Source: an uncultured Candidatus Altimarinota bacterium (GTDB lineage Bacteria > Patescibacteriota > Gracilibacteria > BD1-5 > UBA6164). From it: a stretch of DNA of 39,075 bases. Both the position numbers and the translations under genes were made by a program. How positions within the stretch are numbered: position 1 is the stretch's first letter; every line of letters starts with the position of its first letter. The notes under the pieces were generated by a model. The model did not search any database. It had not been told where the DNA came from and saw only the letters and a list, made by a program, of their open reading frames with translations. Positions 7,498 to 37,462 of this stretch are shown here, piece by piece. The DNA lies in NCBI GenBank assembly GCA_937931775.1, contig CALHAQ010000010.1, forward strand, positions 1 to 39,075. The letters run 5' to 3'.

Positions 7498-8565
7498 TTA
7501 GAATTGCTCATTGAGCTTAAGTTTGTTTTGGTAAAACATTCTTGAGCTTGATACTCCAAATCTTTGTGCTGCAATTCTATCGATTCCCATTCAAAATGCA
7601 AAACCAGAATATTTCTTTGAATCTATTCCACATCACTCAAGTACTGTAGGGTGTACCATACCTGAACCAAGCAGTTCCACCCAACCAGTTCAGCTGCACA
7701 TACTGCATTTCTTTCCTTTTGCCTCTCCGGATCAATTACAAATTTGGCAACTTACATCTACTTCCGCGCTTGGCTCAGTAAATGGGAATATACTTGGCCG
7801 GAATCTTAGCTCAGTTTTTTCTCCTAAAAGTTGCTTCATAACGGTATCAAGAGTCCACTTAAGGTCCCCAAATGTTACTCCTTCTCCTACTACGAGTCCT
7901 TCAAGTTGATAGAAATTACAAGTATGCCGAGCATCCTCTTGTTCATAGCGAAATACTCTTCCTGGAACAATAATCTTTATAGGAAGTTCTTGACTCATCA
8001 TAGTTCTTATTTGCACAGGAGATGTATGAGTTCTCAGAAGAAGTCTTTCTCAAATATCTTTATTTTTATTAACATCATCACTAATCCAGAATGTATCCCA
8101 GACATCTCGGGCTGGATGGTTATGAGGAATATTGAGTTTATCAAAGTTATGGAGTTCATCTTCAACCTGAGGACCATCCTCTATTTTGAATCCAAGAGAA
8201 ATAAATATATCTTCGAGCAATTCTGTCGTATGAGATATAGGATGCTTATGACCGAGATTTTCTGATGGATATCCTATCGTTACATCAATTGCTTCATCTG
8301 ATTCTACTTGCGCAAAAGCAGCAAGTTCTATTTCTCATGCTTTATTAGCAAGCTTTATCATGAAATCCTTCTTCATTTCATTCGCTGCAACTCCCACAGT
8401 TTTCTTATCCTCTATAGAGAGGTCTTTTACACCCGCAAGAATAGCCTTGAGTTTTCCTTTTTTTCCTAGATAGTCTGATTCTAACTGCTTGAGCGAAGCC
8501 TCACTATCTATAGTAGCTAGACTTGCTATAAATTCTTCCTGTAATCTTTGTAGTTGTTGTTTCAT
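7498..8565 (-). CDS. pheS: phenylalanine--tRNA ligase alpha subunit
   Basis: FRYEQEDARHTCNFYQLEG, FPFTEPSAEVDV, a CQICNGSGEAKGKKCSMCSGTGW zinc knuckle, and GSGMVHPTVL...GFAFGMGIDRIA. Fragments joined by TGA=Gly. Confidence 0.9.
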
Positions 8566-8702
8566 GATAACGGTATTACTATTTTACTTATAATGGTATG
8601 GATGATAAGCAAGTAGGAGGGAATTGCAAGACTATAGAGTAAGGAAAAATCTTCTATGATATATATAATTAAAAAAACATATAAAAAACTCTAAAAAATG
8701 TT

Positions 8703-22511: not shown

Positions 22512-22551
22512 AAAAATATTGACTTTTTCTAAAAATATATATCATACAGTT

Positions 22552-22632
22552 ATGAATACACAAATATTTACATCTACGCATCATACGACGCAAGAATCGA
22601 AAACGATTTTTACGTGTATTTTTGGTATGTAA
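22552..22632 (+). CDS. leader mini-ORF 1a, MNTQIFTSTHHTTQESKTIFTCIFGM
   Basis: 26 codons. CAT CAT at 22579..22584 and seven Thr codons. It shares the first 13 nt (ATGAATACACAAA) with the lysA leader mini-ORF. Confidence 0.35.
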   Translation: MNTQIFTSTHHTTQESKTIFTCIFGM

Positions 22633-22650
22633 GTATTTCAATAATATATA

Positions 22651-22686
22651 AAAAAGCTGTTTTCGAAAAGAAAGCAGCTTTTTTAT
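22651..22686 (+). terminator. intrinsic terminator after mini-ORF 1a
   Basis: AAAGCTGTTTTC-gaaaa-GAAAGCAGCTTT (one G-U pair) followed by TTTT. Confidence 0.6.
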
Positions 22687-23236: not shown

Positions 23237-24529
23237 ATGCAACTTTCAACAAATCCACCAAAATGAACCGCGGACTGGTTCCCAGAAGAATATAAAGTGA
23301 GAAAACATGTATTTGATACATGGAGAAGTGTATGCCAGAGCTATTGATTTGAGGAATATTTAGGTCCTCTTGTAGAATCTACGGATATCTGGAAAGCAAA
23401 GAGCTGAGAAGATGTTGGAGGATCCGAACTTACTCAGATTCTTAATCGTGAAGGAAAACAGTCAGGACTCGCAATTCGTCCAGAAATGACTCCCAGCGTA
23501 ACGCGTATGGTAGCAAGTAAGTGGAAGGAAATTGAGAAACCTGTGAAATGGTTTTCTATTGCAAATTTCTATCGTAATGAAAAACCCCAAAAATGAAGAA
23601 ATAGAGAATTTTGGCAACTCAATGCTGATGTATTTGGAGATGAGTCAGAAAACTCAGATATTGAAATACTTACACTCTCACTTGAACTCATGAGAGCATT
23701 TAATCCACCATGTGGAAGTTATAAGCTCAAGCTCAATCATAGAAAACTGATAGATGCATTTTTCTCTGAAGTACTTGGAATAAAGAAAGACAATCAAAAA
23801 AAGGACTTACTCAGGCTTCTCGATAAATATGAAAAACTTCCAAAAGAAGTATTTGAAAAAGATCTAAATAGCCTAGGGATTTCTACTCCTGAACCGATAC
23901 ACGCTTTTATGTCTGCTAAAAATATAGATGATATACAAAAAGAATTCCTTTCTTTAGCTGGAAATAAGAGTCTAGAAGAATTTACACATATTTCTCAGGT
24001 TCTCACAAGTCTCTGATATGATAATGAGATAGAATTTTCAGGAAGTCTGATTCGAGGATTTGATTATTATGATGGAATCATATTTGAAATGTTCGATACA
24101 AATCCAGAAAACCCAAGAGCTCTTTTTGGGGGTTGACGATACAATGGTCTTGCAGATATATTTTGAGTGAAGCAGGGTATTCCTGCAGTATGATTTGCAC
24201 CAGGGGATGAAACAATGAAACTCTTCCTCGAGTGACATGGTCTTATAGAAGATATTCAAAATACAAAACAAGAGACTATATTTGTTCCTCTACTAGAAGA
24301 GGGGCTATTTACAGATATCCAGACTATAGCAACGAAGCTCCGAGCAAAGTGAAAAAAAGTTACAGTAGGACTTGCTCCTCGTAAACTCGGGAAAGCTACC
24401 CAAACTGCAAAGAAAAAATGATATACTCAGATAGTTATCTACTGAGAAGATGAACAAACGTCAGGAAAGTATATTCTAGAAAATCTAAATACGGGAAAAC
24501 AAGAAAAAATCAATTTCCAAAACACATAA
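23237..24529 (+). CDS. hisS: histidine--tRNA ligase
   Basis: 430 aa. [42 protein letters not shown], and FGGGRYNGL (TGA at 24134..24136). Confidence 0.9.
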
Positions 24530-35361: not shown

Positions 35362-35757
35362 ATGAAAAAAATACTAGGAATAGCTCTTATCGTTTCACTT
35401 GCAGCTCTTGCTTCATGTGGAGTAAAAGATGCTGCTAACTCAGTTGTTGAAACAGCTGGAGACGCAGTAGAAGCTACAGTAGATGTTGCTGGAGACGCGG
35501 CTGAAGGTGTTGTTGATACTGCTACTGATGCAGTAGAGGCTACAGTAGATGTTGCTGGAAATGCAGCTGAAGGTGTTGTTGATACTGCTACTGATGCAGT
35601 AGAAATTGCAGAAGATGCAGTAGCTGAAACTGGAGAAGCTATGATGGATAAATGAGAAGAAGTTATGGAAAAAGCAGACGATACTGCTGAAGCTATGATG
35701 GATAAAGGGGAAGAGAAAATGATGGATGATAGCGCTACTGGTGCGATGCAAAAATAA
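35362..35757 (+). CDS. acidic repeat lipoprotein (131 aa)
   Basis: MKKILGIALIVSLAALASC lipobox. Ala/Asp/Val/Glu repeats. Continues past TGA 35653..35655 to TAA 35755. Confidence 0.7.
35461..35604 (+). repeat. 66-bp in-frame tandem repeat, two full copies plus a partial third
   Basis: 35461..35526 and 35527..35592 are near-identical (D-AVEATVDVAG-AAEGVVDTAT). The third copy begins GATGCAGTAGAA. Confidence 0.85.
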
Positions 35758-35771
35758 TTTTTTCTAACATA

Positions 35772-35807
35772 AAAATGCTTTCTTAGTAATAAGAAAGCAT
35801 TTTTTTT
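35772..35807 (+). terminator. intrinsic terminator after the lipoprotein gene
   Basis: AAATGCTTTCTTA-gtaa-TAAGAAAGCATTT followed by a T-run that overlaps the next -35 box. Confidence 0.7.
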
Positions 35808-35839
35808 GACAAAATCATCTTTCAAAATATCATAACGCT

Positions 35840-35890
35840 ATGAATACAAAACAGAACTGGCACCTGCAACCCCTAGACCCTTCTTTATAG
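35840..35890 (+). CDS. leader mini-ORF 3, MNTKQNWHLQPLDPSL
   Basis: 16 codons. Pro codons at CCC 35870..35872 and CCT 35879..35881. TAG at 35888. Confidence 0.35.
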   Translation: MNTKQNWHLQPLDPSL

Positions 35891-35924
35891 TAGGGGTAGT
35901 TGTTTTGACGATATAATTTCAAAA

Positions 35925-35957
35925 ATCTCTCCTGACTATATAGGAGGGATTTTTTTT
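35925..35957 (+). terminator. intrinsic terminator of the proS leader
   Basis: ATCTCTCCT-gactatat-AGGAGGGAT (one G-U pair) followed by TTTTTTT. Confidence 0.65.
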
Positions 35958-36043
35958 AATCTTTATATTCTAAACATAACAAATAACATGGGACCACAAA
36001 TAACAAACATACTCAGATACTAAATGACACCTGAAAAGAATTC

Positions 36044-36235
36044 TTGCTTGATCTTACGCGTGATACGCTCGGAGTAGATATCACTTTAGATCAGATACAT
36101 GATATACTTTCTCTCCAATCTCGTCTACAAAAAGATAGTGATACGGGGAGATGGAAAATCCAAAATAAAAAGAAGCATTGATGATATCTGAATATAGATA
36201 CATTTCGAGAAAAAATTTTACAAAAAATAACTTAA
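36044..36235 (+). CDS. possible small protein (63 aa if it starts at TTG)
   Basis: The frame is open from 35987 to TAA 36233 with two TGA=Gly. The translation LLDLTRDTLGVDITLDQIHDILSLQSRLQKDSDTGRWKIQNKKKHGGYLNIDTFREKILQKIT looks protein-like, but there is no in-frame ATG. Confidence 0.25.
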
Positions 36236-36241
36236 ATAATT

Positions 36242-37462
36242 ATGCTACAACTCTCAAATTTTCCTATAAATACACTCAAATCAACTCCTAATGGGAGTGA
36301 TAATACTTCAACATGATTACTCCTTCAGTGATGATATATCCGTCAAGAAATGGCAGGAGTATATAGTTTCCTTCCTATTGGGCTCAGAGTACTGAGAAAT
36401 ATAGAAAACATTGTGCGTGAAGAAATGGATAATGCCTGATATCATGAAGTGCTTATGAGCGTGATAACAGATAAATCATCCTGGGATATTACAGGGAGAT
36501 GGAATATGGATGTTATGTTTCATGTACCAGCTCACGATGATAAGCAGTACTCTATCAATCCTACCAATGAAGAAACAGTTGTTCCTATGATGAAAGAGTT
36601 TCTCCAGTCATATAAAGACTATCCTACATGCGTATATCATATTCAGAAAAAATTTCGTAATGAGAAGAGAGCAAAATCAGGATTATTGCGAGGAAGAGAA
36701 TTTCTCATGAAAGATGCTTATAGTTTTCATATAGACGATGAGGAGTTTTCAGATTTTTATGAAAGTGTAAAGCAGGTATATGTAAAAATATTCGAAAGAT
36801 TATGAGTAGGATCAGATACTTATGAAACAGTAGCTGATGGTGGGGACTTCACTGATAAGTATTCTCATGAGTTTCAAACAGTCCTCCCTATTGGAGAAGA
36901 TGATATATACATCTGCAGCTGATGCAGGCTTGGACATAATAAAGAGGTAGTACAGGGAGATTTTGTCTGTACTCGCTGTGACTCAAAAGAGTTTGATCTC
37001 AAGCAAGCTTCTGAAGTAGGAAATATATTTCCACTAGAAACAAAATTCTCAAAACCATTTGAAGTAGAATACACAGATAAAGACAACAAAATGGTGGATC
37101 GAGTCCTTATGGGTTGTTATGGTATAGGAATATCTCGTCTCATGTGAGTCATCGCAGAATACTCTGCCACTGAGAAATGAATTCTCTGGCCAGAGAGTAT
37201 TGCTCCAGCAAGTCACTATATCATCGTCATAGGAGAAGATAATATAGAAAATGCTTTCGAACTTGCAGGAAAGTTAGAGTCTGAATGAAAGACAGTAATC
37301 CTCGATGATAGGATGGGACGTAAAGATTGATTTGGACAAAAAGCAGCTGATTGTGAGCTCTGGGGGATACCAAATCGTATCGTCATATCTCCAAAGACGC
37401 TCGAGCAAGGAGGATACGAACTCCTTCAGAGAGGACAAGAACCAACTATAGAAAAACTATAA
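36242..37462 (+). CDS. proS: proline--tRNA ligase, short bacterial-type form without the INS editing domain
   Basis: 406 aa. [59 protein letters not shown]...CTRC element (36914..36979) sits where INS would be. Confidence 0.88.

Follow-up and report, generated by a model that had tools for sequence, protein, structure and literature searches.

Leader-peptide attenuators of enterobacteria, such as trpL, hisL, pheL and the leader of pheST (an aminoacyl-tRNA synthetase (aaRS) operon of E. coli), usually carry runs of regulatory codons in a short open reading frame (ORF). The present analysis deals with a leader located in a DNA stretch of 39,075 nucleotides (positions 1 to 39,075 of contig CALHAQ010000010.1, GenBank assembly GCA_937931775.1), hereafter called the window, from an uncultured Candidatus Altimarinota bacterium of the Gracilibacteria. 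The leader precedes a small conserved ORF, denoted orfX, and proS, the gene for prolyl-tRNA synthetase (ProRS), and is probably a ribosome-mediated transcription attenuator of the trp/his/pheST type controlling orfX-proS. Judged from sequence comparison and modeled folds, its most likely effect is increased synthetase production upon a shortage of charged proline tRNA. Like trpL, hisL, pheL and the pheST leader, it combines a short ORF harboring cognate codons with what are predicted to be mutually exclusive helices formed by segments 1 to 4, between which the ribosome position would decide; as for pheST, the target is an aaRS gene. Unlike the enterobacterial leaders, it yields no Rfam match, contains one or two regulatory codons instead of a run, appears to be leaderless and lacks a Shine-Dalgarno (SD) sequence. 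Furthermore, it would sense proline, and its host belongs to the candidate phyla radiation (CPR) and uses genetic code 25.

Several described systems share individual features with this leader. In Streptomyces, classical attenuators of trpS and leuS were predicted by comparative genomics (PMC1262725). They resemble the proS leader as leader-peptide attenuators of aaRS genes outside the enterobacteria, but belong to another phylum, concern other amino acids, possess GC-rich terminators and show no homology to it. In Salmonella, the ORFs mgtP (mgtCBR leader) and mgtL (mgtA leader) sense Pro-tRNA(Pro) via their Pro codons (PMC3641672). As proposed for the proS leader, the Pro codons of mgtP, a short ORF of 17 codons, switch leader structures that control downstream transcription; in contrast to the proS leader, mgtP carries a run of three Pro codons together with an SD sequence, does not work via a simple intrinsic terminator and is not homologous. 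The targets of mgtP and mgtL are Mg2+ transport and virulence genes, not proS. Leaderless leader peptides are known from actinobacteria: PMC11857589, citing Morbach 2000, describes one for the ilvBNC attenuator of C. glutamicum, and mycobacterial polycysteine leaderless short ORFs exert translational control by sequestration of the ribosome-binding site (RBS) (10.1101/834739). In common with these, the proS mini-ORF would start at the transcript's 5′ end or 1 nt away from it, has no RBS, and stalling on it would remodel the downstream RNA, whereas the actinobacterial leaders respond to other amino acids, have biosynthetic-operon targets and occur in an unrelated phylum. The proS leader shares the leaderless short ORF with the mycobacterial Cys ("ribulon") class, but falls outside this class, because its controlled structure is an intrinsic terminator and its host has no SD or RBS that could be sequestered. 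T-box riboswitches, the usual control of aaRS genes in Firmicutes, finally, show the same overall logic, in which a shortage of charged tRNA leads to terminator read-through before an aaRS gene; the proS leader differs from them by the absence of a specifier loop, T-box motif or Rfam match, and its sensor would be the translating ribosome rather than a tRNA bound by the RNA itself. A full-text literature search retrieved no report of a leader-peptide attenuator for proS or in CPR/Gracilibacteria. A first-pass annotation of the DNA, made from the letters alone, had known of no leader-peptide attenuator of this leaderless form in CPR bacteria; this agrees with the literature searched, but the leaderless form as such has the actinobacterial precedents named above. 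Taken as a whole, the element appears to represent classical attenuation that is new for proS, for the combination of amino acid and target, and for the phylum, while leaderless leaders and Pro-codon sensors were already known.

The leader is encoded on the plus strand and starts with a sigma-70-type promoter (35806..35833), consisting of TTGACA (35806..35811), a 16-nt spacer and TATCAT (35828..35833). It matches 11 of 12 positions and is the best promoter-like site in 3 kb. An ATG at 35840 begins 6 nt past the -10 hexamer, so that transcription is predicted to start at or beside A35840. ATGs in this leaderless geometry, with a promoter of at least 10/12, occur only three times in 39 kb on both strands (35840, 22552 and one intragenic site). 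The mini-ORF opened by this ATG (35840..35890) comprises 16 codons plus TAG (35888..35890), encodes MNTKQNWHLQPLDPSL, and contains two Pro codons, CCC at 35870..35872 (Pro11, the putative sensor codon) and CCT at 35879..35881 (Pro14). Promoter and mini-ORF are thereby found exactly as the first-pass annotation had placed them. The window is AT-rich (34% GC), and TGA is a sense codon used for Gly, accounting for 28% of the Gly codons. Pro makes up 2.9% of all codons in the window genes, among which CCC is the second-rarest Pro codon (6% of Pro codons, 0.17% of all codons). The missing SD at the mini-ORF is not an argument against its translation, because none of the 40 long ORFs of the window is preceded by an SD-like motif.

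The segments able to pair overlap with and follow the mini-ORF. Segment 1 (35847..35882), assigned by prediction and position as the 5′ side of the anti-antiterminator, is made up of C-rich stretches able to pair with segment 2. Segment 2 (35886..35907), delimited by folding and covariation, comprises the ORF end with its stop codon, UAGGGG and a downstream U-rich arm, and can pair with either segment 1 or segment 3. The antiterminator target, segment 3 (35929..35940, CUCCUGACUAUA), is the top of the terminator 5′ arm together with the loop and pairs with 35886..35896. Between the mini-ORF and the structural genes lies the intrinsic terminator formed by segments 3 and 4 (35921..35957), with arms 35921..35934 and 35941..35954, 14 pairs, a T-run at 35950..35957 and a free energy of -16.1 kcal/mol.

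Conservation of this arrangement was assessed with a ProRS-based scan (one genome per species), which yielded 48 loci, mostly from Gracilibacteria; the closest relatives are Gracilibacteria metagenome-assembled genomes. The final leader set contains twelve members, the window and 11 other Gracilibacteria contigs, which places the leader in at least 11 related genomes. BLASTN with the intergenic region located the leader DNA (35804..35956) immediately before proS in L033 (80% identity over 155 nt) and L001 (74%), and a 68-nt leader core with 79% identity at the same position in L025; the ProRS proteins are 64-82% identical, while the leader DNA reaches 74-80% (L033, L001; for L025, the 79% refer to the 68-nt core). 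A metagenome scan with the DNA pattern AACTNNNACCTGCAACCC, which ignored gene context, proved too loose (120 stretches, two of them real), and both true matches, L132 (identical to L001) and L140, lie upstream of proS. More diverged leaders (L010, L043, L002, L026, L028, L029, L030) were found by reading all proS upstream regions. Altogether, the leader is situated directly before proS in six relatives (L033, L001, L025, L140, L010, L043) and before a small ORF followed by proS in five (L002, L026, L028, L029, L030).

The encoded peptides, next to that of the window, are MNKQMNLHLQPLNPSQ (L033), MNTQNNWYLQPVNPSI (L001), MKQRLNWHLQPLNLFT (L025), MKQLLNWHLQPLNLSS (L140), MLKLYKTFLHPVNPKY (L010), MIKQYKIFLHPVDPKN (L043), MQIIYQKTSTGILVPVCSLG (L002), MNFQARLAYLVQPPLSTLGR (L026), MIFQARLAYLLPVPLSTLER (L028), MFNKDLLAFLLPVPLSTLGR (L029) and MFTKQSFTFLVPVPLSTLGR (L030). 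The frame is intact in all twelve leaders, with 16 codons in seven (the window and six relatives) and 20 codons in five. No indels occur within the mini-ORF, whereas some are present just 3′ of it, and changes within the frame include third-position or conservative ones (CCT/CCC, GTG/GTT/GTA, TAG/TAA, CTG/CTT); in these respects, the mini-ORF resembles a translated frame. The CCC codon is invariant (12/12), a terminator and an antiterminator are present in every leader, and the stop codon always adjoins or lies within the G-rich segment 2. The window's geometry of -35 hexamer, 16 nt, -10 hexamer, 6 nt and ATG recurs in six relatives (L033, L001, L026, L028, L029, L030), i.e. in seven of the twelve leaders. 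The remaining five appear to have short SD-less 5′ untranslated regions; leaderless initiation therefore seems to be frequent, but not obligatory.

The gene regulated by the proposed attenuator was identified from its Pfam domains. proS (36242..37462, plus strand) encodes a protein of 406 amino acids with a class II synthetase core (tRNA-synt_2b, 6e-29) and an anticodon-binding domain (HGTP_anticodon). The frame stays open under code 25 only, where TGA denotes Gly, and in the alignment with ProRS the TGA codons fall on Gly residues. The upstream orfX (35987..36235, plus strand, code 25; about 63-82 amino acids) has homologs of 26-43% identity directly upstream of proS in L002, L026, L028, L029, L030 and L032; a Pfam search of orfX returned no family match. 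Its usual ATG seems to be mutated in the window (L002 GGGACCATGAAT vs. window GGGACCACAAAT), where TTG 36044 is the sole canonical in-frame start. The first-pass annotation had named proS as the target. proS is indeed located downstream, but the regulated unit would be orfX together with proS rather than proS alone.

Comparative evidence for the switch itself comes from the co-variation of its helices. When seven leaders were aligned with MAFFT, the terminators of L010 and L043 came out misaligned; therefore, duplex-energy matrices and a five-sequence alignment were used instead of a covariance model. Across the twelve sequences, cognate duplexes of segments 2 and 3 have a mean energy of -12.4 kcal/mol, compared to -7.1 kcal/mol for non-cognate combinations (permutation p<5e-5). 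Among the five closest sequences, the cognate assignment ranks first of 120 permutations both for the 2:3 helix (p=0.008) and for the terminator arms, i.e. the 3:4 helix (p=0.008). Variable terminator loops match variable ORF ends, e.g. UAUAGU/ACUAUA in the window, ACAUAG/CUGUGU in L025 and GUAG/CUGC in L140. RNAalifold, applied to the five closest sequences, selected the 2:3 helix unprompted and reported 7 compensatory pairs among 26 predicted pairs. In this set, 91.8% of the 2:3 pairs can form, compared to 52-65% when the partner columns are slid against each other, with six compensatory pairs vs. one to two with slid partners, and the covariation score was reached by none of 500 shuffles. 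Stem covariation thus extends to the 2:3 and 3:4 helices, but not to the 1:2 helix. A hairpin joining the ORF end to segment 2 is nevertheless present in each subgroup, built from different sequences (CCCUAA/UUAGGG, CCUUUCGA/UCGGAAGG, UGCUCUCUA/UAGAGCA).

Five terminator-like sites are present in the region, where 1.0 would be expected. On the level of single folds, the stretch 35840..35960 is more stable than expected (z = -3.5). The minimum-energy 1:2 hairpin pairs 35847..35867 with 35890..35907 (-16.6 kcal/mol). This is one of three possible registers of segment 1, next to 35870..35875, proposed in the first-pass annotation, and 35878..35882, which is conserved in the family; the best-conserved 1:2 hairpin accordingly involves the tract near codon 14 rather than that at codon 11. 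The initially proposed pairing of CCCCUA (35870..35875) with UAGGGG (35891..35896) involves segments that do exist at these positions, but the helix (-8.6 kcal/mol) is absent from the minimum-energy fold. A similar refinement applies to the 2:3 pairing, since the helix first suggested is weak (-4.1 kcal/mol), while a longer one, pairing 35886..35896 with 35929..35940, is available. It comprises 11 bp with one bulge, amounts to -8.6 kcal/mol alone and -12.8 kcal/mol with nested helices, and excludes the terminator, whose 5′ arm and loop it occupies. The terminator arms given originally (35925..35933 and 35942..35950, followed by seven T) are present and can be extended to the arms stated above.

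Because equilibrium folds favored the terminator, folding was repeated for a stage before its 3′ arm emerges. In this kinetic setting, the transcript was cut just before the terminator 3′ arm, and a ribosome footprint, taken to reach from the 5′ end to P-site +15, was masked. The terminator 5′ arm of the window is sequestered with a probability of 0.10 without a ribosome, 0.85 with Pro11 in the A site, 0.90 with Pro14 in the A site, and 0.04 with the stop codon in the A site. The 11-bp antiterminator of the window appears in the model only with a ribosome on Pro11 or Pro14. The 2:3 pairing is hence relevant under these conditions, while at equilibrium the terminator wins. All twelve leaders show this difference between a stalled ribosome and a ribosome that has reached the stop codon. 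In nine homologs, the arm is already largely paired in the state without ribosome (probability 0.4-0.97).

These data suggest the following course of events, which corresponds to the trp/his-type attenuation envisaged in the first-pass annotation and draws its support from conservation, covariation and folding at different ribosome positions. Transcription would start at or beside the A of AUG 35840, and a ribosome would initiate there without an SD. When Pro-tRNA(Pro) is plentiful, the ribosome would reach UAG 35888 and cover segment 2 (35886..35900), so that the terminator (35921..35954) forms and transcription ends at about position 35957. When Pro-tRNA(Pro) is scarce, the ribosome would pause with the rare CCC (35870) or CCU (35879) in its A site. 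The footprint of the paused ribosome would melt the 1:2 hairpin and leave 35886..35896 free, which could then pair with 35929..35940 while the 3′ terminator arm is not yet made, resulting in read-through into orfX and proS. If no ribosome is present, the 1:2 hairpin would sequester segment 2, again leading to termination.

A second leader of this kind was detected in the same window, upstream of hisS. This candidate leaderless mini-ORF attenuator (22519..22684, plus strand) shows a promoter with TTGACT (22519), a 15-nt spacer and TATCAT (22540..22545), followed after 6 nt by ATG 22552. The ORF of 26 codons, MNTQIFTSTHHTTQESKTIFTCIFGM, harbors His-His at codons 10-11, and a strong terminator is located at 22650..22684. 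Downstream follow an ORF of 130 amino acids and then hisS (23237..24529). Folding yields the same three states as for the proS leader, and a ribosome positioned at His10 or His11 gives an antiterminator of -17.5 kcal/mol. Searches via HisRS homologs revealed that the leader is kept in two relatives, L170 (…THHIT…) and L171 (…THHHA…), both in leaderless geometry; the His codons are kept (HH or HHH), whereas the flanking Thr codons are not. Two other hisS loci examined are without such a leader. As an independent case of cognate codons in the same genome, the hisS leader provides strong indirect support for Pro-codon-dependent attenuation of proS.

Several observations weigh against this interpretation of the proS leader. 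Only one Pro codon is invariant; two are present in nine of the twelve leaders, whereas L025, L140 and L002 have a single one. The regulatory codons thus number one or two and form no run. In addition, a peptide motif, (hydrophobic or aromatic)-L-x-P-[V/L], is kept across subgroups that use different codons for it (Leu is encoded by CTG or CTT, the residue before it by CAC, TAC or TTC), which may hint at a contribution of the nascent peptide to pausing. The 1:2 helix lacks a covariation signal (p = 0.09 with all sequences and 0.48 with the close set), and its register is ambiguous among three alternatives. At equilibrium, the full-length RNA favors the terminator even under the ribosome mask, in the window as well as in most homologs; the switch must therefore be kinetic. 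The classical trp leader shows the same energy ordering, and there, too, the choice is kinetic. Taken alone, the antiterminator of the window lies barely above composition-matched shuffles of the segment 2 region (p about 0.05-0.10), hence the claim rests on the comparative evidence. Finally, the terminator is located 285 nt before proS in the window, and the intervening orfX has no canonical start except the TTG mentioned above. Since these 285 nt hold the conserved orfX, the attenuator of the window precedes orfX-proS, as in five relatives.

The conserved motif is also the starting point of an account in which translation of the mini-ORF does govern the terminator, yet the nascent peptide itself arrests or pauses the ribosome, its stalling at Pro depending on another factor than mere Pro-tRNA supply, e.g. 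EF-P status, translation capacity, a small molecule or an antibiotic. Pro is a poor substrate in arrest peptides, and the persistence of hydrophobic-L-x-P-[VL] despite different codons as well as the low number of Pro codons would fit such a mechanism. We nevertheless consider it improbable, as proS is the regulated gene throughout, no leader lacks the rare CCC codon, and the His-His(-His) codons of the hisS leader point to a cognate-amino-acid logic. Somewhat less probable still is that the unit from promoter to terminator represents a trans-acting small RNA (sRNA) of about 118 nt with an incidental ORF, or that the terminated leader fulfills a second role in trans. The unit is self-contained and well folded (with the z-score given above), and attenuator-derived sRNAs are known (PMC6614838); rnTrpL of Sinorhizobium has such a role in trans. 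Against this, frame, stop position and Pro codon are conserved, and the antiterminator co-varies with the terminator loop, for which a plain sRNA would have no need; moreover, the unit is always found right in front of proS or orfX-proS, in the same orientation, and no Rfam family matches it.

The Rfam searches bear equally on a riboregulator that binds a protein or tRNA while the ORF stays untranslated, either by ProRS autoregulation via a tRNA-like operator or as a T-box-like sensor. aaRS genes are often under such control, examples being the thrS operator in E. coli and the T-boxes in Firmicutes, and five sequences share the block ACCTGCAACCC without any nucleotide difference. This block diverges in other subgroups, though, where frame and Pro codon persist, and the hisS leader follows codon logic. 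The whole window gave no Rfam match at gathering thresholds. A permissive scan of 35700..36300 (E up to 10) returned chance-level matches only, none of them a T-box (RF00230), and among the leader-peptide families (Trp, His, Phe, Thr, Leu etc.) the sole match was Phe_leader on the minus strand, at chance level (22.3 bits vs. a gathering threshold of 55). A T-box, a known leader family and a known sRNA are therefore rejected. ARAGORN detected no tRNA or tmRNA in the window, which speaks against a tRNA-like operator. Altogether, control by such a riboregulator is very unlikely. Least credible of all is that a promoter-like site, a short ORF and a second terminator came to lie together by chance, with no regulatory role. 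Hexamers resembling a promoter are frequent in this AT-rich DNA (nine found at a threshold of 9/12, 12.6 expected), and an open frame of 16 codons is not rare by itself; conservation of the whole unit with co-varying helices in 11 other contigs, however, effectively refutes this explanation.

The proS upstream regions of other loci present a varied picture. Nine of them (L006, L008, L009, L019, L011, L004, L015, L031, L036) are without a mini-ORF in the last ~80 nt, and show TTTACA or TTGACA followed by or overlapping with an AT-rich hairpin and T-run right before the proS ATG (e.g. AAAACTTATAAAATA...TATTTTATAAGTTTTTTT). These may constitute a regulatory leader of another kind or a terminator and promoter in shared use. 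L034 (2830..2960) contains a non-homologous mini-ORF, MLKEIKKFPPQSFLFLKS, with the codons CCC CCT, from which a terminator of 20 bp separates proS; the ORF end, CUCAAGU, has its complement, ACUUGAG, at the terminator top, and the element is possibly a Pro attenuator, either independent or highly diverged. In L041, L045, L038 and L044, short ORFs with a CCC codon inside a small CCC...GGG hairpin are located ~100 nt upstream of proS, where no obvious intrinsic terminator was found.

Upstream of the leader, the window carries a gene for a lipoprotein-like protein (35362..35757, plus strand) with a signal peptide including a Cys and tandem acidic repeats, DAVEATVDVAGDAAEGVVDTAT; its Pfam matches are weak and sub-threshold only. 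This gene possesses its own intrinsic terminator (35771..35807, plus strand), composed of a 15-bp hairpin (35771..35804; -16.8 kcal/mol, z -5.3) and a T-run, as was noted early on, and this terminator overlaps the -35 box of the leader promoter. The hexamer TATCAT recurs as -10 element, preceding pheS as well as the leaders of proS and hisS. The pheS gene (7498..8565, minus strand) has a promoter of its own, TTGCAA-17-TATCAT. A Phe leader before pheS was considered and discarded: the ORF in question is merely ATG TTT TTT TAA (8669..8680, minus strand), without terminator or alternative-structure logic nearby, and probably arose by chance.

With two members (proS and hisS) in 39 kb, a broader role can be tentatively envisaged, though we regard it as rather doubtful at present: Gracilibacteria, which lack SD sequences and read TGA as Gly, might use a set of leaderless mini-ORF attenuators for general tuning of aaRS genes to the charged-tRNA supply, in the role that T-boxes play in Firmicutes, and the proS leader might sense via a single rare CCC, with the conserved hydrophobic-L-x-P-[V/L] context of the nascent peptide sensitizing the ribosome to a shortage of Pro-tRNA. 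The series of mini-ORF, terminator and aaRS gene offers a feature for annotation, and the device is small enough for heterologous or cell-free testing. It would also be a natural example of sensing with one or two codons only, extending the textbook paradigm while overturning nothing. CPR bacteria (Patescibacteria) are uncultured and host-dependent, have reduced genomes, and their gene regulation is almost unstudied. If the attenuator operates as proposed, these organisms would couple transcription to translation, initiate translation on leaderless transcripts, and sense their amino-acid supply via ribosome pausing at rare codons.

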